From NCBI GenBank assembly GCA_934090935.1, contig CAKOKD010000002.1, forward strand, positions 25,438 to 89,437: a DNA stretch of 64,000 nt. The letters run 5' to 3'. The notes below the pieces were generated by a model, which ran no database searches, was not told the DNA's origin, and saw only the letters and a program-made list of their open reading frames with translations. The translations under genes and the position numbers were made by a program. Numbering within the stretch: position 1 is the first letter of the stretch; each line of letters starts with the position of its first letter. Shown here one piece after another: positions 3 through 63,061 of the stretch. This DNA is from an uncultured Bacilli bacterium. GTDB lineage: Bacteria; Bacillota_I; Bacilli_A; RF39; UBA660.

Positions 3-602
3 GAAAGCAAAAAAATAATCCTAACTGAAGGTGAATATAGTTTAAGTGAAACTATTGCACCAGATGGATATAAATTAAGCACAACTACAATTGAATTTAA
101 AGTTGATGCAAACGGAAGCGTTTATGTTAAAAACGAAAAAGGTAACTATGCTGCAGTAGACAAAGTAGTAATGATCAACGTTTTAAAAGATGTTGTAACA
201 ATAGCTAAAAAAGATTCAAAAACTGATGCTTTAGTAGCCGGAGCAACATTAGTTATTAAGGATAAAAATGGAAACGTTATAAAAGAATTCACTACAACAG
301 GCGAGTACTTCCAATTAACAATGGACGCTGGAACATACACAATAGAAGAAAAAAGTGCTCCAAAAGGTTACATCAAAAGTAACGAAGTAATCGAGTTTGA
401 ATTACTTGAAAACGGAACATTAAAAATCAAGAATAAAAATGGGGATTTTATCGAGAGCAATTTAGTAACATTCTATAACACTAAAGGTGAAGAAGTAGTA
501 GTTCCTGCAACATCTGCTTCAAGTACACTTTTAATTATTGGTGGTATAATGCTAATTATAGGTGGTACTTACTGTGTTAAAAAAACTATCAAAGAATGCT
601 AA
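3..602 (+). CDS. Cell-surface protein, C-terminal fragment (Cna-B/SpaA-type prealbumin-like repeats plus C-terminal sorting signal); the 5' end lies outside the window
   Basis: Frame 3 is open from base 3, so the Met at 171 in the ORF track is internal. Repeats such as GEYSLSETIAPDGYKL and GTYTIEEKSAPKGYIKS are typical of Gram-positive stalk domains. The tail (VVPATSASS, then hydrophobic TLLIIGGIMLIIGG, then basic KKTIKEC) has sorting-signal architecture. A sortase gene follows. Confidence 0.7.
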   Translation, partial: ESKKIILTEGEYSLSETIAPDGYKLSTTTIEFKVDANGSVYVKNEKGNYAAVDKVVMINVLKDVVTIAKKDSKTDALVAGATLVIKDKNGNVIKEFTTTGEYFQLTMDAGTYTIEEKSAPKGYIKSNEVIEFELLENGTLKIKNKNGDFIESNLVTFYNTKGEEVVVPATSASSTLLIIGGIMLIIGGTYCVKKTIKEC

Positions 603-10125: not shown

Positions 10126-10137
10126 ACTAGTGGTTTT
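10110..10137. terminator. Bidirectional hairpin shared by the convergent XRE gene and sigK
   Basis: AAACCACTAG-attaa-CTAGTGGTTT inverted repeat spanning both stop codons. Confidence 0.5.
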
Positions 10138-10828
10138 ATAATTCAACATTTTTCTTTTTACATTCACGATATATTTTAGAAATTGCTCTTTTTTCAATTC
10201 TAGAAACATATGATCTCGAAATACCTAAATTCTCAGCAATCTCTTTTTGAGTAAGTTCATCCTGATTAAAAAGTCCATATCTTTTTATAATGATATCTTT
10301 TTCACGAGGATTAAGAATGCTTAAATACCATTCAATGCTATCAATATTTTGATGTTTGTGAATTGTATCAGCAATATCCTCATCGTTAGATTTTATTACA
10401 TCCATTAAACTAATTTCATTTCCTTCAGAATCATGTCCAATTGCATCATTTAAAGAAACATTATTTAAATTTTTTTTATTGCTTCTAAAATACATTAGAA
10501 TTTCATTTTCAATACAACGAGCTACATAGGTTGTTAATTTATTTTTCTTATCCGGTTTAAATGAGTCAATTCCTTTAATTAATCCAATTGTTCCTATGCT
10601 TATAAGATCATCATTTATTTTTTCTATTCTTTCAAATTTTTTTACAATATGGGCAACTAATCTCAAATTATGTTCAATTAATTTAGCACGAGCATCTTTA
10701 TTGCCAAGTTTCATTTCACCAATAAGTTTTTCTTCCTCTTCACTGGATAAAGGATTTGGAAAAACATTGATAGAATAAGAACCAGTAGAGAAGGATAAAA
10801 GATTAAATAAATGAATTAAAAATAACAT
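10136..10828 (-). CDS. sigK: Sporulation sigma factor SigK (pro-sigma-K), uninterrupted
   Basis: VFPNPLSSEEE..., IEHNLRLVAHIVKKFE, DLISIGTIGLIKGIDSF, YVARCIENEILMYFR and LGISRSYVSRIEKRA match B. subtilis SigK closely; SigE would read IERNLRLVVYIARKF. A hydrophobic pro-sequence is present. AGGTGA RBS. Confidence 0.85.
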   Translation of the reverse strand: MLFLIHLFNLLSFSTGSYSINVFPNPLSSEEEEKLIGEMKLGNKDARAKLIEHNLRLVAHIVKKFERIEKINDDLISIGTIGLIKGIDSFKPDKKNKLTTYVARCIENEILMYFRSNKKNLNNVSLNDAIGHDSEGNEISLMDVIKSNDEDIADTIHKHQNIDSIEWYLSILNPREKDIIIKRYGLFNQDELTQKEIAENLGISRSYVSRIEKRAISKIYRECKKKNVEL

Positions 10829-28615: not shown

Positions 28616-28692
28616 TGGTGACCCGTACGGGATTTGAACCCATGAATGCATGCGTGAAAGGCATGTGTGTTAAACCACTTCACCAACGGGCC
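28616..28692 (-). tRNA. tRNA-Glu (anticodon UUC), CCA encoded
   Basis: The reverse complement reads GGCCCGTTGGTGAAGTGGTTTAACACACATGCCTTTCACGCATGCATTCATGGGTTCAAATCCCGTACGGGTCACCA. It folds as a cloverleaf with anticodon loop CTTTCAC. A TTGACA-18-TATTAT promoter lies at 28703-28732 (-) and a terminator hairpin at 28581-28603 (-). Confidence 0.9.
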
Positions 28693-52200: not shown

Positions 52201-52883
52201 ATGAAATTTATGAAATGATGGATGAAGCCGGAATGGATCATGATGGTAAAACTGTTTTATATGATGGTAAAACTGGTGAACCATTCGAAAACAGAGTATC
52301 TGTTGGTGTCATGTATATGATAAAACTTCACCACATGGTAGATGATAAACTTCATGCTCGTTCAACTGGACCATACAGTTTAGTTACTCAACAACCTTTA
52401 GGCGGTAAAGCTCAATTTGGTGGTCAAAGATTTGGAGAAATGGAAGTTTGGGCACTATATGCATATGGTGCAAGTCATGTTCTACAAGAAATTATGACAG
52501 TTAAATCGGATGATGTAACTGGACGTGTTAAAGTATATGAAGCTTTAGTTAAAGGTAAACCAATTTCAACTGCTGGTGTTCCAGAAAGTTTCAGAGTATT
52601 AATTAAAGAGTTCCAAGCTCTAGGATTAAATATTGAAATGATTGATTATGACGATAAAGTTCATGATTTAAGAGAACTTGAAGCAGATGAAGATGACGGA
52701 GATGCATTAACTATTGATGAAATAGATATCAATACTGGAGAGGTAAAGGGTAAACCTGCTGTAGAAGAAACTCCAGTAGAAGAAACGGATGAATTCGATA
52801 GTGAAGATGAAGAATTCGAAGATGAACCAAGCATAGACGATATAATGGCTTTGGAAAATGGTTTTGAAGGAGGGGAAGAATAA
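49254..52883 (+). CDS. rpoB: DNA-directed RNA polymerase subunit beta
   Basis: Canonical beta-subunit motifs ([23 protein letters not shown]-type, [14 protein letters not shown]). It has an acidic C-terminal tail. Confidence 0.95.
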
Positions 52884-55800
52884 TGTTAGAAGTTAACAAC
52901 ATTAAAGGTATAAGAATTAGTATTGCTAGCCCTGAGAAAATAAGAGAATGGTCTTATGGTGAAGTAAAAAAACCAGAAACTATCAACTATCGTACTTTAA
53001 AACCAGAAAGAGATGGACTATTCTGTGAAAAAATCTTTGGACCAAGTAAAGATTATGAATGTTCATGTGGTAAATATAAAAGATTAAGATATAAAAATGT
53101 AATATGTGATAGATGTGGAGTAGAAGTTACTAAGTCTAAAGTACGTCGTGAACGTATGGGACATATAGAGCTTGCTTCTCCTTGCTCTCATATTTGGTTT
53201 TTTAAGGGTGTACCTTCAAAAATGGGCCTTGTTCTAGATATGTCTCCAAGAGACCTAGAAGAAGTATTATATTTCGTAAGTTATGTAGTAATCAATCCAG
53301 GAAATGCACCTCTTGAAAAGAAACAAACTTTATCTGATAAAGAATACCGTGCTTACTATGAAAAATATGGAAATGGTTTTGAAGTAGGTATGGGTGCTGA
53401 AGCTATCAAAAAACTTCTACAAGAAGTAGATGTTGATAAAGAAGTTGAAGCATTAAAAGAAGAATTAAATGGGGCAACAGGTCAAAAGAGAATTCGTTTA
53501 GGTAAACGTCTTGATTGTTTAGTTGCATTCCAAGAAAGTGGTAATAAACCTGAATGGATGATACTAGATGCTATTCCAGTTATTCCACCAGATTTAAGAC
53601 CAATGATTCAACTTGATGGTGGTAGATTTGCTACATCTGATTTAAATGATTTATATAGAAGAATTATTAATAGAAATAATCGTTTGAAAAAATTACTTGA
53701 ATTAGGTGCTCCATCAATAATCGTTCAAAACGAAAAACGTATGTTACAAGAGGCTGTAGATACATTATTTGATAATGGTAGACGTGGTAGAAGTGTTACA
53801 GCTGCATCAAGTCGTCCATTAAAATCATTATCTAGTATGCTTAAAGGTAAACAAGGACGTTTCCGTCAAAACTTATTAGGTAAACGTGTTGACTACTCAG
53901 GTCGTTCAGTTATCGTTGTTGGACCAAGCTTAAAGATGTATCAATGTGGTATACCTAAAGAGATGGCTCTTGAATTATTTAAACCACATGTAATTAATGG
54001 TTTAGTTAATGCCGGACTTGCTCACAATATTAAAGGCGCTAAGAAATTAATTGATAATAGAGATGACTGTGTTTGGGATATCGTTGAAGATGTTATCACT
54101 GAACATCCAGTAATGTTAAACCGTGCTCCAACTCTACATAGATTAGGTATCCAAGCATTTGAACCTAAGCTAGTAGGTGGTAAAGCTATTCGTCTACATC
54201 CACTTGTTTGTACAGCATTCAACGCAGACTTCGATGGAGACCAAATGGCAGTACACGTTCCACTTTCAGAAGAAGCTAAAGCTGAAGCTAGAATTCTTAT
54301 GTTAGGTGCTAACAATATTTTAAAACCATCTGATGGAAAACCAATCGTTACTCCAGGACAAGATATGGTTTTAGGTAACTATTATCTAACAATGGAAAAA
54401 GCTGGAGAAGAACATGAAGGTAAAGTATATAAAAATGAAGATGAAGCTTTAATGGCTTATGAAAGAAAAGAAGTTACTTTACATACAAGAATTGCTATTC
54501 CAGTTAGAAGCTTTAAATATAAATTATTCTTAGATGATGTTCAAGATAAGTATTTAGTAACTACTGTAGGTAAGATTAAGTTTAACCAAATTTTACCAGA
54601 TACTTTCCAATACTTAGCTGAACCAACTAAGGAAAACATTGAAGGAATTACTCCAATGAACTATTTCTTAGATCAAGGAGTAAATATTCCTGAAGAAATA
54701 AGTAAGATGCCACTTGCTAAACCATTTGGTAAAAAAGACTTACAAAAAGTAATTGCTCAAGTATTTAAACGTTTCAAAACAACTGAAACATCAATAATGC
54801 TTGATAAATTAAAAGACTTAGGATTTAAGTTCTCTACTATAGCAGGTATTACATTCTCAATGTCTGATATCGTTGTATCTGCTCATAAGCAAGAATACTT
54901 AAAAGAAGGTCATGATAAAGTTGAACAAATCAACAAACAATATAAACGTGGTTTAATTACTGATGAAGAAAGACATAATTCAGTATGTGACGTATGGAAT
55001 GGCGTACAAGATAAGGTTCATGGTGAACTTGCTAGTGTTGCCAAAGAACAAATTGATAACCCAATCTTCATGATGATGAACTCTGGTGCCCGTGGTTCTG
55101 TTGGACAATTCGGTCAAATGGCAGGAATGTCAGGATTAATGGCAAAACCAGATGGAACAGTTTCTGAAGTTCCAATAACTTCATCACTTGTTGAAGGACG
55201 TAAAGTTAATGAGTTCTTCTTAAATACACATGGTGCTCGTAAAGGATCTGCCGATACAGCATTACGTACTGCTGATTCAGGTTACTTAACAAGAAGACTT
55301 GTAGATGTTGCTCAAGATATTATTGTTAAAGAAGCTGATTGTGGATGTTTATCTGGTTTAGTTGTATCTGATTTGGTTGACGATAAAGATGGATCTGTAA
55401 TTGAAGGTTTAATCGATCGTATAACTGGAAGATATACTGCTAAGAAGGTAATTAATCCAGAAACAAAAGAAACAATTATTGATAAAAACGAACTTATTAC
55501 TGAATCAATTGCTGCTAAAATTGTTAAAGCAGGAATTAAAGAAGTTGAAATTCGTAGTGCTCTAACATGTACAGCTGAAAATGGTGTATGTCAAAAATGT
55601 TATGGTATTAACTTAGCTACTGGTAACTTAGTTGAAACTGGTGAAGCTGTAGGTATTATGGCTGCTCAATCAATTGGTGAACCAGGTACTCAGTTAACAA
55701 TGCGTACATTCCACTCAGGTGGTGCTGCCCATGGTGGAGATGCCGATATCACTCAAGGTCTTCCAAGAGTTGAAGAGTTGTTTGAAGCTCGTAATCCAAA

Positions 55801-56587
55801 AGGTAAATCTACTATTGCTGAAATCAATGGTAAAGTTACAAACATTGAAGATGCTAATGGTAAATGGAAAGTTACTATTACAAATGATGTTGAATCTAGA
55901 GAACATACAACAACTTATGAAGCTAAATTAGTTGTAGAAGTTGGTAGTGAAGTAGTTGCCGGACAAAAACTTACTCAAGGAGCTATTAGTCCAAAAGAAT
56001 TACTTGCTGTTACTGACCCAATTACAACTCAAAATTATATCTTAAAAGAAATCTTAAAAGTTTATAAATCTCAAGGTGTTGATATCTCTGATAAACACGT
56101 TGAAATTATAGCTAGTAGAATGATTAATAAGATGAGAGTAGTAGATGAAGGAGATTCTGATTTAGTTGCAGGATTAACAGTATCAATGAAAGAATTTGCT
56201 GATAGAAATAAACCAGTTATCTTATCTGGTGGTGTACCAGCTACTGGTAGACCAGTAATCTTAGGTATAACTAAGAGTGCTCTTGAAACTGATTCATTCT
56301 TATCTGCTGCATCATTCCAAGAGACTACAAGAGTATTGACTGACGCTGCTATTAAAGGTAAAGTTGATTACTTAAAGGGATTAAAAGAAAATGTTATCCT
56401 TGGTAAACTTATACCAGCAGGAACTGGTGCTAAACAATATTCAGATATTGAAATTCAACTTGAAAAAGATTTCTTATCTGATGATGCTAGCGAAGTATTA
56501 GAAGATCAATTCTTAGATGATGACACTGATGATATTAAAGAAGAGTTAGTCGTTGTTGATGAAGAAACTAACGAAGAAGCTGAATAG
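52883..56587 (+). CDS. rpoC: DNA-directed RNA polymerase subunit beta'
   Basis: Zn finger CSCGKYK..C..CG, the catalytic motif [12 protein letters not shown] and the trigger-loop region. Its start overlaps the rpoB stop. Confidence 0.95.
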
Positions 56588-56600
56588 TTTCTTCTTTTTT
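56573..56600 (+). terminator. Weak rpoC terminator
   Basis: GAAGAA-10 nt-TTCTTC followed by T6. The stem is short and AT-rich. Confidence 0.4.
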
Positions 56601-56702
56601 CTTGCAAAATAAAAACATATGTAGTAATATGTATTTAGAGATGCAACATTGCATACAATAAAAAAGGGAACATTCAGTTTTTGCTAGTTGAATGTCTACC
56701 TA
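56589..56702 (+). repeat. Direct repeat copy 1 (~114 bp, one mismatch versus copy 2)
   Basis: TTTCTT..TTTTCTTGCAAAATAAAAACATATGTAGTAATATGTATTTAGAGATGCAACATTGCATACAATAAAAAAGGGAACATTCAGTTTTTGCTAGTTGAATGTCTACCTA recurs 390 bp downstream. Confidence 0.9.
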
Positions 56703-56745
56703 ACGATTTGTAGACACTTATCTTTGCAGATGAGTGTCGTTTTTA
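56637..56745 (+). ncRNA. Candidate small RNA 1, a putative antitoxin RNA convergent with the small peptide gene
   Basis: Promoter TTGCAA (56602-56607), 17-nt spacer, TAATAT (56625-56630). Internal hairpins ATGCAA/TTGCAT and ACATTCA/TGAATGT. Terminator GACACTTA-loop-TGAGTGTC followed by T5 at 56713-56745. No ORF with an RBS. Confidence 0.45.
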
Positions 56746-56758
56746 TTCATAGGTGATA

Positions 56759-56842
56759 CTACTTCAAGATAATGAAGAGTAAGGCTATTAATAAGTTGAT
56801 AATAATGATTAAGCTTAAAATTAAAAAATCTTTCTTTCCCAT
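56759..56842 (-). CDS. 27-aa hydrophobic peptide MGKKDFLILSLIIIINLLIALLFIILK (type I toxin-like)
   Basis: It is not in the ORF track because it is shorter than 60 aa. It has its own promoter (see next feature) and a GAGAGGA Shine-Dalgarno sequence upstream. The 5' UTR can fold (GAACATC/GATGTTC and CCTCT/AGAGG) over the SD region. Confidence 0.45.
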   Translation of the reverse strand: MGKKDFLILSLIIIINLLIALLFIILK

Positions 56843-56910
56843 ATATATCAAGAACATCCTCTCTATAAAGATTAGAGGCAGACACTCAACAACTGATGTT
56901 CCTAAACCTA

Positions 56911-56939
56911 ATTGTAGCAGCATAGTGAAATAAAATCAA
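56911..56939 (-). promoter_or_regulatory. Promoter for the small peptide gene: TTGATT-17-TGcTACAAT
   Basis: On the - strand, TTGATT is at 56939-56934, followed by a 17-nt spacer, then an extended -10 TGC-TACAAT with TACAAT at 56916-56911. Confidence 0.5.
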
Positions 56940-56979
56940 GATAAAAAATACAAATGTTCGATTTTGAAAATCTGTAATA

Positions 56980-57092
56980 TTTCTTTTTTTCTTGCAAAAT
57001 AAAAACATATGTAGTAATACGTATTTAGAGATGCAACATTGCATACAATAAAAAAGGGAACATTCAGTTTTTGCTAGTTGAATGTCTACCTA
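56980..57092 (+). repeat. Direct repeat copy 2
   Basis: It is identical to 56589-56702 except for a T-to-C change in the -10 box (TAATAC) and a small poly-T length difference. Confidence 0.9.
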
Positions 57093-57143
57093 TTATTATT
57101 TTGGTTGGACATTTAATTCTAATGAATTAAGTGTCATTTTTTT
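57027..57143 (+). ncRNA. Candidate small RNA 2, a paralogue of sRNA 1 with a diverged 3' terminator
   Basis: Promoter TTGCAA (56992-56997), 17-nt spacer, TAATAC (57015-57020). Its first ~65 nt match sRNA 1. Terminator GACATTTAATTC-taat-GAATTAAGTGTC followed by T7 at 57108-57143. Confidence 0.4.
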
Positions 57144-57316
57144 ATTGCTAGTACCAATAATTTGATAGCGATGCGTTTAAGGAACTTTATAACAAAGTTT
57201 CTTTTTTTGATATTAAGTTTTTCATTACATAAAAAATACTATTAAAAAGTTGATAAATCGGTTTAGTTTTAATGATATTTAGTGTATAATAATTCATATA
57301 GGTAGGATGTGGCTTC

Positions 57317-60300
57317 ATGGATGAAAAACTAATAAACTTTTTTAAATTAATCAATTATAATGATGTACTTGCGTTTGAAAATGCCAAGTTTAAAGAAATG
57401 GCTATAAGGGATAATGGAACAACTTGGATTATTAGAATTAATGCAAAAGAACTTATTCCTGTAAAATCAATGATGAACTTGATTACTTTGTGTAAAGATG
57501 GAATAAATGACGTTAAATCTATTATTATCGAGATGAATTATGAGGTATTACCAAGTCAATTAATTCTTGAATATTTCTTATATTTTTTAGATGAGGTAAT
57601 AAACAATTATCCAAGTTTGAGTGGAATAAATAAAGACTCAATCGATATTGATGATGATATTATTTTAATAGAAGTTACAAGTAAAAATGAAGAGGCAACT
57701 TTAAAAAAAGAAGTGAAGAAAATTTTAAATCGCATGGATACTCTTGGTATACATGGAATAGATGCTTCTTTTAAAATAAATGAAGAAGAGAAAAAGAATA
57801 TTAAAGAAAAAATAGAAGCTGCTAAAGAAAATGTTATTATTCCAACAAAAGTAGTTGTTGAAGATAAACCAAAATGGACACCTAAGAAAAAAGTTGAATA
57901 TCAAAGAGAAGGTATTGTTTCTATTGCTTCAATTGAAAAAGAAGAAAATGCAGTAAATTTGGAAGCTTATATCTTTTCTACTGACTTCAGTGTTTTAAAG
58001 AAAAAAGATGGCAATCCATTATATTTAGTAACTTTGAAAATAAGCGATAATACATCAAGTATACTTGCTAAAACTTTTGCTGGTGATGAAGAAGAGTTTA
58101 ATAAATATGGAAAAGAATTAAAATCTGGTAAATGGTATCATTTTATTGGTCAAGTTAGAGATGATTCTTTTGCACATGATTTGGTTTTCCAATTTAGAAG
58201 TTATGAAGAAATTGATGATCCTACTATTAAGCGAAAAGATGAAGAAATTGAAAAAAGATGTGAACTTCATGCACATACAATGATGAGCCAAATGGATGGT
58301 GTTTGTGATGAAGTTGCTCTAGTGAAGCGTGCAATGGAATATGGTCATAAAGGTATTGCTATAACTGATCATGATTGCTGTCAATCATTTCCCCATGTAT
58401 TTGATACAGTTACAAAATTTAATAAGGGAAGAAAAAAAGATCTTGATTCTAAGATTAAAGAAAATGAAGAAACTCTTGAAAATATTAAAAGTTCAGGAAA
58501 TCAAGAAGGAATAGAAGAGTTAGAAAAGTTTATTGAAAGTTTAAAAGAAGAGAAGAAAAATTTTGTTCCATTTAAAGCTGGATATGGTGTAGAACTTGAG
58601 ATGACTGAAAGCAAACTTAACGTTGTTTTCAATCCAAATGATGAACTAATTGAAGATAATACATTTGTTATATTCGATACAGAAACAACAGGTTTTAACC
58701 CTGGTTTAAGTGATTCTATGATTGAAATTGGTGCAGTAAAACTTAAAAATGGTGAAGTTGTTGATAGATTTGATGAACTTATTAATCCTGGACGTCATAT
58801 AGATGAATCAATTACAAGAGTTACTAATATAAGTGATGATGACGTTAAAGATGCTGATAATGAAGAAAATGTCATAAAACGTTTTAAAGAATGGATTGGT
58901 TCTTTACCTTTAGTAGCCCACAATGCTAGATTCGATAAAAACATGTTAGATATGGCATATTATAAATATAATTTAGGAAAATTAGAAAATCCAATTATTG
59001 ATACCTTGATGTTATCAAGGGTAATAAATCGTGAACTTAAGAAACATAGTTTGAAGGCTTTAGGTAAATTTTATGGTATTGATACTGGTGAGGCAGAAGA
59101 CGAAGAACAAAGCGATTCATCACTTCCTACTGGAAGCTTCAAATTTGATGATGAAGATGGAGAAAAGATTGAAGATGTTTTAGTTGATTCTGAATCTATT
59201 TTGAAAGTTCAAAGTGAAGAATATTTAGATAATGATATTACAACTGAAAGTAAAGTAACTAAGGTTAGAAATACTTATTATCTTCCAACAATTTATAAAA
59301 AGAGTAAAACGGAAAAGTGTGAAATTGAAGTTAAATTTAAGGATGGAAGTGTAATAAAACGTGCTTTTACACTTCATCCAGCAGAAAATGCTTGTGTCAT
59401 AAATTATGCTAGTACATTTGGGGAAAAAGAAATACCAATAACTATTTATGTTGGACAACACCATGGTGCCGATGTCGACTCAGAAAATACTGGATATATA
59501 TTCAATAAGATGTTAAAACAAATTGAAGGTTTAACTAAAATATCTGAATTAAATGATCTTTATAAACTTGAAGATGTTGCTTTTAGAAATGACCATAAGA
59601 AACTTGGCAATATTGCTGAATTATGCTCATATAAAAACTATGTAATTCCAGCTGAAGAAGATAAAATTTATGAAGATAAAGATTATCCTTTCTTGAAATA
59701 TGATAATAAAGATTATGTATGGAAATTTCCTTGGTGTAAAGATGATTTCTTACAAATGTATGAAAATATTCCTGGTAAAACATTTACAGAAAATCTTGCT
59801 AATATTTATGATTTTACAAAGCACGTTACTTTCATTGCTAAAAATAAAGTTGGATTGAAAAATATGTTTAAACTTATCAGTTTTGCTAATACAAACTTTA
59901 TTGAAAGAAATGCTAAAATACCAAGAAAACTAATAAATGAATATCGCGAAGGAATTTTGGTTGGTTCAGCTTGTTTAAATGGTGAAATTTTTAATCTTGC
60001 TTTAACAAGATGCGAAGAAGATTTGATTGAAGCAATGAAATTCTATGATTATATTGAAATTCAACCAATCGATAACTATAAACATTTGCTTAAAAATCAT
60101 GATATATCTAATTTGGATGATTTAAAACTTGCAATAAGAAAAATTATTAAATGTGCAAAAAGTCTTGGAAAAATGATTGTTGCAACTTCAGATGTACATA
60201 ATATTGATCCACAAGATTTAATCAGTAGAGAAATAATTGTTAACCAAAATGTTCCTGGAAAAGGAAGACATCCATTGGCTAGATATTTAAAGGGCGATTA

Positions 60301-63061
60301 TAAAGTTAATGTTAATAAAGAAAACATTGAACATGCTATTAAGCAAGCACACGATAAAGGACATGATTTAACAAGTGTAGATATAAAAGTTTTAAAATAT
60401 ATTTATGCATTAACCAATGTAAGAAATGTGGAGATTACATCCAATAATTTGGCTTTAGTTTATGCCGTTGACAAAAATAATCAAGATGAAGCTCCTGCTA
60501 AAACTAGTTTTGAAGAAAAGAAGTATATGATAGATTCTTCTTTAAGAAAATTACAAATAGCTGGTTTAGTAAGCGTTAATTATGTTAATGGAACTTATTC
60601 ACTTTTATGCAAATATACTAAAAGTGAAATTCCTAAAATGGGGCATATTCCTAATCAATTCTTTAGAACTACAAGAGAAATGTTAGATGAATTTGCGTGG
60701 TTAAATGATCGAGACTTAATTCATGAAATAGTTATTGAGAATCCAAATAAAATAATTGATATGTTGGAGGAGATTGAAGTAGTAGTTTATCCTGATAAAC
60801 CATATTCTCCAATTATTGAACATTCTCAAGAAACATGTCGTGATCTTGTATTTAATAAAGCTCATAGTATGTATGGAGATCCACTTCCTGCTAATATTGA
60901 GGAACGTATTGCTCAAGAATTCTATGGAGATAAAATCAATGTGTTAGTTCAAGAAAAAATTGATATTGAACATCCAGAAATGAGTGAAGAAGAGAAAAAG
61001 GCGATATTTACTCCAACGCTTCATGATGTAATAATGAGTGGATATGATGGAGTAGTTAATTTAAAAAAAGAACAAGTTAAAAGACTTAGTGATAAAGAAT
61101 TAACTGATGAAGAGGCTATAGAAGAGGCAAAAGCTCAGCTAACAGGAATTATTGGTGGAGGATTTGACGTTATTTATTTGATTGCTCAAAAACTTGTTAA
61201 ACACTCAAATGATGATGGATATTTAGTTGGATCACGTGGTTCAGTTGGTTCTTCATTTGTTGCAAGTATGATGGGTATTACAGAATGTAATGGTCTTCCA
61301 GCGCATTATTATTGCCCAAATTGTCAATATAGTGAATTCAATGACAAAGATGGACATCCTTATTCTGAAAATTATCCAAGTGGATTCGATTTGCCAGAAA
61401 CCAATTGCCCAAAATGTGGAGCTCAAATGATTCATCAAGGAAATGACATGCCATTTGCAACATTCTTAGGATTTGCTGGAGAAAAAGTTCCAGATATAGA
61501 CCTTAACTTCTCAGGAGATAATCAAGCAAGTGCACATGAATATACAAAAGTTTTATTTGGTACAGATAATGTTTATCGTGCTGGAACTATTGGTACGGTT
61601 GCTGATAAGACAGCATTTGGTTATGTTCAAGGTTATTATGAAGATGTAATGTATAATGAGTTAACTATTGAATGTGCGTGTTTTGGTCTTTCAGTAACAA
61701 GCAAAGATGAACTTAGAAAAAAAGGTTTAGTTAAATCGTTTATTCGTATACCAGAGGTCGAGAGAATGGCAGTAGGATGTACGGGAGTTAAAAGAACAAC
61801 TGGACAACATCCAGGTGGAATCGTAGTTGTTCCCGGATATAAAGATATTTGGGATTTTACGCCATTTCAATATCCAGCTGATGATCCAACAGTTGCTTGG
61901 AGAACTACACACTTTGATTACCATGCAATTGATGCTGACCTTTTAAAACTGGATATACTTGGACACGATGATCCAACCGTATTAAAAATGTTACAAGACC
62001 TTTCGGGTATAGATGTTACTAAAATCGATTTAGGTGACCGTGATACTATGAAAATATTTACAGGTCCAGAAGTTTTAGGTGTTGAGAAAACTCGTCTTAG
62101 AGGTTTAACGAGTAAAGATGGAGTTAAATATTGTCCAACAGGAACTCTTGGAGTACCTGAATTTGGAACATCTTTCTTACTTGGAATGCTAGAAGAAACA
62201 AAACCAACAACGTTTGCCGAACTTATTAAAATATCAGGTCTTTCACATGGTACTGATGTATGGCTAGGTAATGCCAGAGACTTGTGTACACCGGATGAAT
62301 TTGGAAATATTCAAGTACCATTTAAAAATGTTATTGGGTGTCGTGACGATATCATGGTTAACTTAATTCAATGGGGAGTTCCAGCAGGAAAAGCCTTCAA
62401 AATAATGGAATTTGTTCGTAAAGGAAAACCTAGTAAAGATCCTGCAACTTGGGCAGAACATGCCGCTTTCTTAAGAGAATATAATATTCCAGAATGGTAT
62501 ATTGAATCATGTAGAAAAATAAAATACATGTTTCCAAAAGCACATGCCACTGCATATGTTACAAGTGCTTTTAGAATTGCTTGGTTCAAAGTTCATTATC
62601 CAATTTGGTATTATTGTGCATACCTTTCTATAAGAAGAGATGCTTTTGATATACCTTCAATGATTAGAGGAGAAAACGCTATACGTGAAAAAATTGATGA
62701 AATCGATGCAAAAGGAAATTTAGCAAGTAACAAGGAAACTGATACGCGTGATACTTTGTGTATCTGCCTTGAAGCAGCAGCAAGAGGCATATACTTTAAA
62801 AATATTGATATTGAAAAAAGTGATGCTAAAAAGTTTGTGATTACGGAAGATGGAAAAGGGTTAATTATTCCTTTCTGTGCATTAGATGGACTTGGAGAAA
62901 ACGTTGCAAAGGAAATTATCAAAGCAAGAAAAGAAGCTCCATTTATTTCTCAAGAAGATTTACAAAAACGTGGAAAAGTAAATGGTTCTTCAATAGAAAA
63001 ACTTAAAGCTTTAGGTTGTTTAGATGGCTTAAGCGAATCTAATCAATTATCATTATTTTAA
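57317..63061 (+). CDS. polC: DNA polymerase III PolC-type, unusually long (1914 aa)
   Basis: PHP motif ELHAHTMMSQMDG. Exonuclease motifs FDTETTG, AHNARFD and HHGADVD. GYLVGSRGSVGSS, Zn motif YYCPNC...CPKCG, GVKRTTGQHPGG, KLDILGHDDP and C-terminal NQLSLF. Several insertions relative to B. subtilis PolC as I recall it. Confidence 0.95.
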   Translation: MDEKLINFFKLINYNDVLAFENAKFKEMAIRDNGTTWIIRINAKELIPVKSMMNLITLCKDGINDVKSIIIEMNYEVLPSQLILEYFLYFLDEVINNYPSLSGINKDSIDIDDDIILIEVTSKNEEATLKKEVKKILNRMDTLGIHGIDASFKINEEEKKNIKEKIEAAKENVIIPTKVVVEDKPKWTPKKKVEYQREGIVSIASIEKEENAVNLEAYIFSTDFSVLKKKDGNPLYLVTLKISDNTSSILAKTFAGDEEEFNKYGKELKSGKWYHFIGQVRDDSFAHDLVFQFRSYEEIDDPTIKRKDEEIEKRCELHAHTMMSQMDGVCDEVALVKRAMEYGHKGIAITDHDCCQSFPHVFDTVTKFNKGRKKDLDSKIKENEETLENIKSSGNQEGIEELEKFIESLKEEKKNFVPFKAGYGVELEMTESKLNVVFNPNDELIEDNTFVIFDTETTGFNPGLSDSMIEIGAVKLKNGEVVDRFDELINPGRHIDESITRVTNISDDDVKDADNEENVIKRFKEWIGSLPLVAHNARFDKNMLDMAYYKYNLGKLENPIIDTLMLSRVINRELKKHSLKALGKFYGIDTGEAEDEEQSDSSLPTGSFKFDDEDGEKIEDVLVDSESILKVQSEEYLDNDITTESKVTKVRNTYYLPTIYKKSKTEKCEIEVKFKDGSVIKRAFTLHPAENACVINYASTFGEKEIPITIYVGQHHGADVDSENTGYIFNKMLKQIEGLTKISELNDLYKLEDVAFRNDHKKLGNIAELCSYKNYVIPAEEDKIYEDKDYPFLKYDNKDYVWKFPWCKDDFLQMYENIPGKTFTENLANIYDFTKHVTFIAKNKVGLKNMFKLISFANTNFIERNAKIPRKLINEYREGILVGSACLNGEIFNLALTRCEEDLIEAMKFYDYIEIQPIDNYKHLLKNHDISNLDDLKLAIRKIIKCAKSLGKMIVATSDVHNIDPQDLISREIIVNQNVPGKGRHPLARYLKGDYKVNVNKENIEHAIKQAHDKGHDLTSVDIKVLKYIYALTNVRNVEITSNNLALVYAVDKNNQDEAPAKTSFEEKKYMIDSSLRKLQIAGLVSVNYVNGTYSLLCKYTKSEIPKMGHIPNQFFRTTREMLDEFAWLNDRDLIHEIVIENPNKIIDMLEEIEVVVYPDKPYSPIIEHSQETCRDLVFNKAHSMYGDPLPANIEERIAQEFYGDKINVLVQEKIDIEHPEMSEEEKKAIFTPTLHDVIMSGYDGVVNLKKEQVKRLSDKELTDEEAIEEAKAQLTGIIGGGFDVIYLIAQKLVKHSNDDGYLVGSRGSVGSSFVASMMGITECNGLPAHYYCPNCQYSEFNDKDGHPYSENYPSGFDLPETNCPKCGAQMIHQGNDMPFATFLGFAGEKVPDIDLNFSGDNQASAHEYTKVLFGTDNVYRAGTIGTVADKTAFGYVQGYYEDVMYNELTIECACFGLSVTSKDELRKKGLVKSFIRIPEVERMAVGCTGVKRTTGQHPGGIVVVPGYKDIWDFTPFQYPADDPTVAWRTTHFDYHAIDADLLKLDILGHDDPTVLKMLQDLSGIDVTKIDLGDRDTMKIFTGPEVLGVEKTRLRGLTSKDGVKYCPTGTLGVPEFGTSFLLGMLEETKPTTFAELIKISGLSHGTDVWLGNARDLCTPDEFGNIQVPFKNVIGCRDDIMVNLIQWGVPAGKAFKIMEFVRKGKPSKDPATWAEHAAFLREYNIPEWYIESCRKIKYMFPKAHATAYVTSAFRIAWFKVHYPIWYYCAYLSIRRDAFDIPSMIRGENAIREKIDEIDAKGNLASNKETDTRDTLCICLEAAARGIYFKNIDIEKSDAKKFVITEDGKGLIIPFCALDGLGENVAKEIIKARKEAPFISQEDLQKRGKVNGSSIEKLKALGCLDGLSESNQLSLF

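Follow-up and report, generated by a model that had tools for sequence, protein, structure and literature searches.

Predicted type I toxin-antitoxin-like modules in the rpoC-polC spacer of an uncultured Bacilli bacterium and a related family in gut and rumen metagenomes

What is encoded in the 729-nucleotide (nt) spacer between rpoC and polC (56588-57316) of an uncultured Bacilli bacterium? The spacer lies in a 64,000-nt stretch of contig CAKOKD010000002.1, which is the whole DNA that was analysed and is referred to here as the window; coordinates are those of the window unless a relative is named. A preliminary description, made from the letters alone, had placed in this spacer a short hydrophobic peptide gene on the minus strand, flanked by two duplicated small RNA (sRNA) units on the plus strand. 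As judged from sequence comparison and thermodynamic modelling, the locus is likely to carry type I toxin-antitoxin-like modules with a switch of the bsrG/SR4 type. The window appears to hold a tandem pair of them, one intact (pepA and sRNA 1) and one decayed (psi-pepB and sRNA 2); the production of both RNAs, the toxicity of the peptide and the working of the switch are inferred. The predicted toxin and its antisense RNA form a new family of a known kind, with no detectable homology to known ones.

The peptide gene, designated pepA, is a 27-aa open reading frame (ORF; MGKKDFLILSLIIIINLLIALLFIILK) at 56842..56759 on the minus strand. The peptide has a single predicted transmembrane helix with charged ends and a Kyte-Doolittle mean of 2.07, and is a predicted type I toxin. 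Its promoter (56939..56911, minus strand) consists of TTGATT (56939..56934), a 17-nt spacer and the extended -10 box TGcTACAAT (56919..56911). ORF and promoter had both been proposed at the outset; sequence and consensus scan agree on them, and the promoter position is conserved throughout the family described below. Every coordinate in the preliminary description agrees with the sequence. The transcription start site is predicted at ~56903, and the resulting leader (56903..56843) contains hairpin 1, which is also the arm for long-range pairing (56902..56876), an anti-Shine-Dalgarno (anti-SD) motif CCTCT (56878..56874) and a Shine-Dalgarno (SD) sequence GAGAGGA (56863..56857). A 54-aa extended ORF from 56923 was rejected as the product, its start lying upstream of the -10 box. 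Loci of relatives are designated by L numbers. The pepA of L003 is identical to that of the window, that of L004 differs at 8 codons (6 synonymous and 2 non-synonymous changes), and further intact alleles were found in L125, L194 (two copies) and L111; on this comparison we take the ORF at 56842..56759 to be real.

No terminator stands between the pepA stop codon and the neighbouring unit; the nearest good one downstream is formed by the reverse complement of the sRNA hairpin termed SL2. The mRNA 3' end was placed at this intrinsic terminator (56701..56657, minus strand), which doubles as the 3' partner in the leader helix described below. Over 56700..56657 it reads GGTAGACATTCA-loop-TGAATGTTCCC then TTTTTTATT (in RNA letters, GGUAGACAUUCA-loop-UGAAUGUUCCC then UUUUUUAUU), with 11/12 positions paired on the minus strand; a terminator had been expected here from an ACATTCA/TGAATGT stem, and the one present is better than that description. 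Because the mRNA terminates at the SL2 complement, it would be ~250 nt long and would overlap sRNA 1 by ~88 nt (56658-56745), in keeping with the ~85-nt convergent 3' overlap first estimated and with the arrangement of txpA/RatA and bsrG/SR4. Two pairings had been proposed across the SD, of which CCTCT/AGAGG is conserved family-wide and GAACATC/GATGTTC is specific to the window. This longer stem results from a GGAGG>GGATG change, which weakens the SD (relatives read GAGGTTC) and is possibly a toxin-attenuating mutation. The SD region of the window allele thus reads GAGAGGATG (56857-56863) against GAGAGGAGG in all relatives, and the same change gives window pepA an upstream in-frame ATG (MFLIYMGKK...).

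The plus strand carries a 108-nt direct repeat (56595-56702 and 56985-57092; 99% identical, one mismatch). It had been drawn at 56589-56702 and 56980-57092; the repeat and its single mismatch are real, and the wider bounds take in a few flanking bases that match only in part. The 38-nt core of the repeat is found nowhere else in the window and was never matched in shuffled sequences (0 chance matches expected). Both units have the same layout, namely a promoter, a 5' hairpin (SL1), an A-rich linker, the long hairpin SL2, a variable hairpin and an intrinsic terminator. In the first, the promoter (56602-56630) reads TTGCAA (56602-56607)-17-TAATAT (56625-56630), and sRNA 1, the predicted pepA antitoxin, would span 56637..56745 (~109 nt, plus strand), with SL1 at 56641-56654 followed by the A-rich linker, SL2 at 56666-56700 followed by the variable hairpin GTCTAC/GTAGAC, and the terminator hairpin at 56713-56738 with its T-run at 56740-56744. 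In the second, the promoter (56992-57020, plus strand) reads TTGCAA (56992-56997)-17-TAATAC (57015-57020). The sole repeat mismatch is the last base of this -10 box (TAATAT>TAATAC, position 57020), and the homologues of unit 2 in L003 and L004, which face an intact partner, have TAATAT. sRNA 2 would span 57027..57144 on the plus strand (~118 nt), identical to sRNA 1 over its first 66 nt and different in its variable hairpin, and would end at a 'type B' terminator (57108-57135, T-run 57137-57143). Both plus-strand promoters can be read from the sequence as originally proposed, and both terminators were recovered by the consensus scan, which returned three terminator sites in the region against 0.3 expected. 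Predicted folding energies were -30.5 kcal/mol for sRNA 1 and -29 kcal/mol for sRNA 2, each with a z-score of -3.8.

A family search was carried out with a pattern derived from the invariant core of the unit (GGAACATTCRG-loop-TGAATGTC), which matched at least 120 metagenome contigs; family counts are taken from the matches listed. The unit profile gave at least 114 units in at least 99 gut and rumen metagenome contigs, mostly with E < 1e-15. For the 105 units with enough downstream sequence, convergent ORFs were filtered as SD-preceded, hydrophobic, 15-70 aa long and on the opposite strand, with the stop positioned -30 to +80 nt from the unit 3' end. By this strict filter 66/105 units face a convergent hydrophobic ORF, against 0/105 and 1/86 in two controls for orientation and position. 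A hidden Markov model (HMM) of the toxin module added, among the remaining units, ~10 decayed remnants and ~15 intact ORFs that had escaped the strict filter through TTG starts or lower hydropathy. In total, ~80/105 units have opposite them a convergent hydrophobic ORF of 27-32 aa that stops at the sRNA terminator, so that peptide and repeat, whose joint conservation had been suggested as a check, do occur together.

The commonest peptide of the family is not pepA, which is less frequent and restricted to the window organism's close relatives, but a 30-aa type termed pepB (30-32 aa across its types), with the consensus M-k-k-R-x-F-i-i-K-v-L-r-x-I-x-I-I-L-l-L-L-i-i-m-i-i-V-I-K-K; MKKRNFVIKVLRYITIILFLLIIMIVVIKK is an example of the consensus type. 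All peptides have charged N- and C-termini around a hydrophobic run of ~20 residues. Codon-position entropy across 37 distinct pepB ORFs was 19.1, 14.0 and 23.8 bits at positions 1, 2 and 3, and since variability follows the order 3 > 1 > 2 these ORFs evolve as coding sequence. ORF length and frame are kept over ~45 distinct peptide sequences. In L047 (48% PolC N-terminus identity) a module stands at an unrelated locus with the pepB homologue MKTKTFILKVLKLITIILLLSTLLVLAIKK, and its anti-SD and SD have changed on both sides, from CCTCT/AGAGG to CCTCC/GGAGG. Three pattern matches in viral contigs were due to chance, none being confirmed by the unit HMM; pepB had no tblastn match in plasmids, and the locus had no blastn match in a phage collection.

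Upstream of the peptide genes, a promoter with the family consensus TTGatt / TAtAaT stands 27 +/- 1 nt from a GTCTACC leader motif, and the leader itself is highly conserved family-wide (AGGAACAUUUAGUUGUUGAGUGUCUACC-UCUAAUCUUUAUAGAGAGGAGGUUUGAUAAA-AUG). Minimum free energy (MFE) folding pairs the SD in 52/62 distinct leaders, compared with 21% in controls whose upstream part was shuffled. Over its first ~27 nt the leader resembles sRNA SL2 in the same sense, except that the loop is shorter, and because of this resemblance the leader is complementary to the 3' untranslated region (3' UTR) of its own mRNA. The full-length window mRNA folds at -71.5 kcal/mol (shuffled, -42.8 ± 4.2; z = -6.8) and contains such a 5'-3' helix. 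Across the family the helix forms in 62/64 distinct mRNAs, compared with 5/64 with shuffled leaders; a median of 26 of the first 32 nt is paired to the last 60, and the helix is worth a mean of 24 kcal/mol beyond local folding alone. Its 12-bp core is nearly invariant, and one-sided changes in it are almost all wobble-compatible. The sRNA-bound state was modelled by making the 3' UTR unavailable, upon which the unpaired probability of the SD falls in 56/64 mRNAs (means 0.166 vs 0.069; median ratio 23; Wilcoxon p = 2e-6). Trimming of the 3' end also lowers SD accessibility in the model, and the mean unpaired probability of the SD stays at or below 0.17 in every state modelled. The structure of the toxin mRNA is thus predicted to restrain translation by sequestering the SD.

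A two-state switch would operate as follows. As long as the mRNA is free, its leader would pair through the first ~27 nt with the 3' UTR, and this long-range pairing would keep part of the anti-SD (CCUCU) off the SD, leaving the mRNA weakly translatable. The sRNA would pair perfectly with the same 3' UTR segment and displace the leader, the freed leader would let the anti-SD close fully on the SD, and translation would be blocked. The ~88-bp duplex would in addition be a substrate for RNase III, which would promote decay. Such a dual action on translation and stability has been demonstrated experimentally for bsrG/SR4 of Bacillus subtilis.

The closest parallel among known systems is bsrG/SR4. 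In the experimentally determined structure of the bsrG mRNA, 5' nt 1-35 form helix P1 with 3' nt 232-262; once SR4 has bound the bsrG 3' region, nt 1-33 are single-stranded and the SD helix has grown from 4 to 8 bp (PMC3834814). The long-range fold predicted here matches that structure. The modules described here likewise combine a hydrophobic peptide gene with a convergent sRNA whose 3' end overlaps that of the mRNA, and SL1, as in SR4, lies outside the complementary region. They also share with bsrG/SR4 (PMC3834814) a 5'-3' mRNA helix whose 3' side is targeted by the sRNA, which here is a thermodynamic prediction only. The differences are that the sRNA is ~110-120 nt long rather than 183 nt as for SR4, that the peptides have 27-32 aa, that the pairing partner of the leader, a same-sense copy of SL2, is the terminator hairpin itself, and that the modules form chromosomal intergenic tandem arrays in uncultured gut Bacilli instead of residing in the SPbeta prophage. 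No sequence relationship to BsrG or SR4 was detected with Pfam, NCBIfam or Rfam at E <= 10, searches whose power is low at 27-30 aa. The locus is accordingly described as a predicted functional analogue of bsrG/SR4 and not as a demonstrated member.

Convergent genes with complementary 3' ends are also found in txpA/RatA, bsrE/SR5 and yonT/SR6 of B. subtilis, in which the antitoxin promotes decay of the toxin mRNA and whose duplexes, like that of bsrG/SR4, are cut by RNase III (PMC6562991). RatA acts by degradation only, with no translation-inhibiting refolding (PMC6562991), unlike the switch predicted here. The toxin sequences of these three systems are unrelated to pepA and pepB, and the systems reside in prophages or in the skin element. 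In addition, TxpA and YonT are longer than the peptides described here. Closure of a full-length mRNA by a long-distance 5'-3' interaction is known from hok (fbi/tac) of hok/Sok (plasmid R1) and from aapA1 of aapA1/IsoA1 (Helicobacter pylori). In those two systems the closed mRNA is inert, becomes active once its 3' end is trimmed and is bound by the antitoxin in its 5' region, whereas here the antitoxin would bind the 3' partner of the closure, and opening the closure, by sRNA or by trimming, lowers the modelled accessibility of the SD.

SprA1/SprA1AS of Staphylococcus aureus resembles the present modules in its small membrane peptide, its convergent antisense RNA with overlapping 3' ends and its possible action in trans. 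Repression by SprA1AS relies on its 5' domain, which lies outside the overlap and pairs imperfectly with the ribosome-binding site of the toxin. Pairing of this kind between the sRNA 5' domain and the translation start of pepA or pepB was rejected, the only match found by eye being 4 nt long. In the present family the invariant SL2 domain would allow any unit to pair with any family mRNA. We tentatively propose that the leader is a mimic of its own antitoxin, competing with it for a single site in the 3' UTR; that every sRNA, including orphans such as sRNA 2, switches every toxin mRNA, since the SL2-complement site is nearly invariant across modules; that the variable 3' part gives module-specific decay; and that the arrays form a cross-regulating network, in which translational control is shared and decay control private, belonging to a lineage-wide family of uncultured gut and rumen Bacilli. 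Of this larger proposal we are much less confident than of the modules themselves.

The second unit of the window had been proposed as possibly acting in trans through the shared complementary segment. Trans action of sRNA 2 on the pepA mRNA stays plausible, but the unit is not a free spare and has a decayed partner that had been missed. This pseudogene, psi-pepB (57211..57134, minus strand), was detected by the toxin-module HMM with E 2e-6 and reads (ATC)IKKRNFVIKFLKRIAIK^LLVLAIKK*. Its start codon is lost, ~5 codons of the transmembrane segment are deleted, and the leader and promoter are gone; its stop codon falls within the T-run of sRNA 2. An intact pepB for comparison is the 30-aa peptide of L003 (MRTRTFILKFLRLIAIILLLTTLLVLAIKK), and in both L003 and L004 the counterpart of unit 2 faces an intact pepB. 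On this comparison, sRNA 2 is the partner of the decayed putative toxin gene psi-pepB. The type of unit terminator tracks the neighbouring peptide, 'type A' occurring with pepA and 'type B' with pepB, and the first ~66 transcript nt are nearly identical among all units of the window and its close relatives. The pepA and pepB modules of L003 share 78/87 nt of promoter and leader and 58/93 nt of the ORF.

Relatives were collected by scanning species-representative genomes with the PolC N-terminus, which returned 80 loci. The nearest is 'Firmicutes bacterium CAG:582' (99% PolC N-terminus identity); the others are uncultured gut and rumen 'Bacilli' metagenome-assembled genomes (MAGs), down to 38% identity. 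Some related MAGs carry the label Candidatus Coprovivens, and the NCBI placement is Bacilli incertae sedis. Near-identical strains differ in this spacer, with 1-3 units and 0-2 intact peptide genes. At 99% PolC N-terminus identity, L001 has one unit and no peptide gene, L002 has one unit and no intact peptide gene, and L003 has three units and two minus-strand genes (pepA and pepB); at 88%, L004 has two units and two genes, each with a convergent unit at its 3' end. Disruption of the peptide with retention of the repeats, which the preliminary description had listed as evidence against itself, thus occurs in L001, L002 and L170, while the ORF is intact in many others. Because it is intact and under purifying selection in those, the disrupted strains are read as toxin decay with antitoxin retention and not as a refutation.

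Several products of rearrangement were seen among these relatives. In L002 (5636-6000) the N-terminal part of psi-pepB is fused to the 3' half of pepA, a recombinant decay product, and in L170 (~10530-10650) an intact pepA ORF is promoterless, its leader and promoter having been replaced by psi-pepB sequence. A module in L074 (3380-3720), a distant MAG with 38% PolC N-terminus identity, stands right after a tRNA gene; its pepB-type ORF and leader are intact, and its convergent unit has been deleted internally between two TGAA repeats, with loss of the SL2 3' arm, the variable hairpin and the terminator 5' arm. In L001 (5750-5830) a 'type C' terminator-like hairpin (GGACACTCTATGTTAGATTGTC, followed by a T-run) lies between the single unit and a psi-pepB remnant; it is also present in unit 3 of L003 and goes with no peptide type.

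Several points weigh against reading the locus as toxin-antitoxin modules with such a switch. The peptides match no known toxin family in Pfam, NCBIfam or PADLOC scans. Covariation in the 5'-3' helix is modest, double-sided changes being limited to 7 sequences at 4 pairs, and the same changes are also neutral for the local hairpin of the leader. The window pepA allele lacks the predicted switch, its SD accessibility going from 0.21 to 0.29, and both MFE and partition-function predictions ignore co-transcriptional folding. Finally, the relatives all come from short-read MAG or metagenome assemblies, in which 390-bp tandem repeats may be collapsed or mis-joined.

The alternative that survives best is that the peptides are small regulatory or structural membrane proteins (MgtR-, KdpF- or SpoVM-like), tuned by a cis-antisense RNA and serving neither addiction nor killing. 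It would account for their place outside every known toxin family scanned and for modules in core-genome intergenic regions (rpoC-polC) that were not found on phages or plasmids, and it could draw on a weak match of pepB to the NCBIfam model small_MgtR (E 0.035, 14 bits vs a cutoff of 35). That match, far below the cutoff, is a low-complexity transmembrane likeness. Against such a role, the presence of modules varies between 99%-identical strains and they form tandem arrays of several copies; peptide genes have decayed time and again, through lost starts, transmembrane deletions and promoterless fusions, with the sRNA kept; modules occupy unrelated loci in different genomes; and expression is locked down by SD sequestration and the long-range helix. 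As these traits are typical of type I toxins and not of a housekeeping peptide, we consider a non-toxin role unlikely and favour the toxin-antitoxin interpretation.

A second alternative concerns the unit, which could be only the 3' UTR and terminator (and insulator) of the peptide gene, duplicated along with it, with no antisense RNA. A good minus-strand terminator does lie within the unit, and its U-run could account for the A-rich linker. The sequence of the unit nevertheless argues for transcription from the plus strand. Among 100 distinct units, a sigma-70-type plus-strand promoter (consensus TTGaaA / TAttAT) is conserved at a fixed distance from SL1, with a 17-nt spacer in 83/100 and a TGn motif in 76/100, although the sequence of the spacer varies. 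SL1 lies beyond the end of the peptide mRNA and yet forms a hairpin in 95/98 units, with 28 different arm pairs; a GAAA loop, which is a tetraloop on the plus strand only, is present in 33/98. SL1 was tested by folding each sequence individually, since MAFFT registers were shifted there and RNAalifold missed it. A terminator hairpin with a T-run is found at the 3' end of the unit on the plus strand only, and in its stem five pairs have undergone compensatory changes on both sides (in 13, 9, 23, 30 and 19 sequences). One of its pairs is U.G in 60/98 units, which would be a C.A mismatch if read on the minus strand, and the plus strand is more stable than its complement in 89/98 units, by a mean of 4.7 kcal/mol. 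Units also outlive the peptide gene, persisting without one in L001 and L032. A mere 3' UTR is therefore very improbable, and we predict that the unit is an sRNA gene that has a promoter and a terminator of its own and whose RNA is complementary to the toxin mRNA.

A functionless recent tandem duplication or assembly artefact with an ORF arisen by chance, a notion to which AT-rich DNA with its many short hydrophobic ORFs, a count of promoter-like sites no higher than in shuffled sequences (6 vs 7.8 in the region, consensus scan) and the probably metagenome-derived source lend some colour, is effectively refuted by the recurrence of the unit in >100 independent contigs from many samples and hosts, by coding-type substitution in the length- and frame-conserved ORFs and by the nearly empty orientation controls. 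Two further candidates were discarded. MITE-like element ends (as of a miniature inverted-repeat transposable element), suggested by the inverted similarity of leader and SL2, do not fit, since SL1 and the two promoters fall outside those repeats; and a leader or attenuator for polC does not fit units that stand at unrelated loci paired with peptide genes.

Known families were searched for in the same DNA. A permissive Rfam 15 search of 56000-57800 gave only noise, the best hit being psm_mec (E 4.9; 21.7 bits vs a gathering score of 85), and at the gathering threshold only one tRNA passes in the whole window. With Pfam and NCBIfam, pepA, pepB and the 54-aa extended ORF gave noise only, at the low power available for 27-30 aa, and neither pepA nor pepB matched a PADLOC defence model. 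Nine peptide variants and the 54-aa extended ORF were absent from an exact cluster look-up in ~15 billion predicted proteins. Literature searches, which were not exhaustive, returned no description of this peptide/sRNA family.

Type I systems are thought to be phylogenetically narrow, largely because searches start from known families (PMC12390103). The present family was found from raw sequence and is common in poorly known uncultured gut and rumen Bacilli. It marks a gap in MAG annotation, as no gene caller has reported it, the tested peptides being missing from the 15 billion predicted proteins and the RNA from Rfam. It would also supply ~100 natural variants of a 5'-3' switch of the bsrG/SR4 type, a mechanism so far studied in one system; compact modular RNA switches of this type are reportedly being repurposed as regulatory devices. 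Since arrays differ between 99%-identical strains, the rpoC-polC spacer is a possible strain marker.

The window has ~29% G+C, and its long ORFs lie nearly all on the plus strand. The spacer is flanked on its 5' side by rpoC (plus strand; TIGR02386, 1789 bits), with a terminator at 56573-56594 (plus strand, consensus scan), and on its 3' side by polC (57317-63061, plus strand; NF001688, 1532 bits), whose promoter TGTATAAT (57283-57290) sits where the leader and promoter of the second module would be. Over 52883-57316, polC directly follows rpoC; the usual Firmicutes order after rpoC is rpsL-rpsG-fusA-tuf, and rpoC-polC synteny is retained in only 12/80 related loci. The window PolC has 1914 aa, compared with 1445 positions in the NCBIfam PolC model, and its match is split into five stretches, which would imply large insertions; the long form is common to the related MAGs used here. 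Other sizeable minus-strand features of the window are limited to a tRNA gene (28619-28692, 61.8 bits) and a 230-aa ORF (10136-10828), so that pepA, with the rest of the window coded on the plus strand, is among very few genes read against the prevailing direction. In L012, an rpoC-polC spacer without any unit (1164-1544) contains a different 33-aa hydrophobic ORF (MGQIIISCCKNLKLFASCCLVFVALYISIFLAA; minus strand, 277..176 of the spacer), which could be due to chance or be another small-peptide gene.

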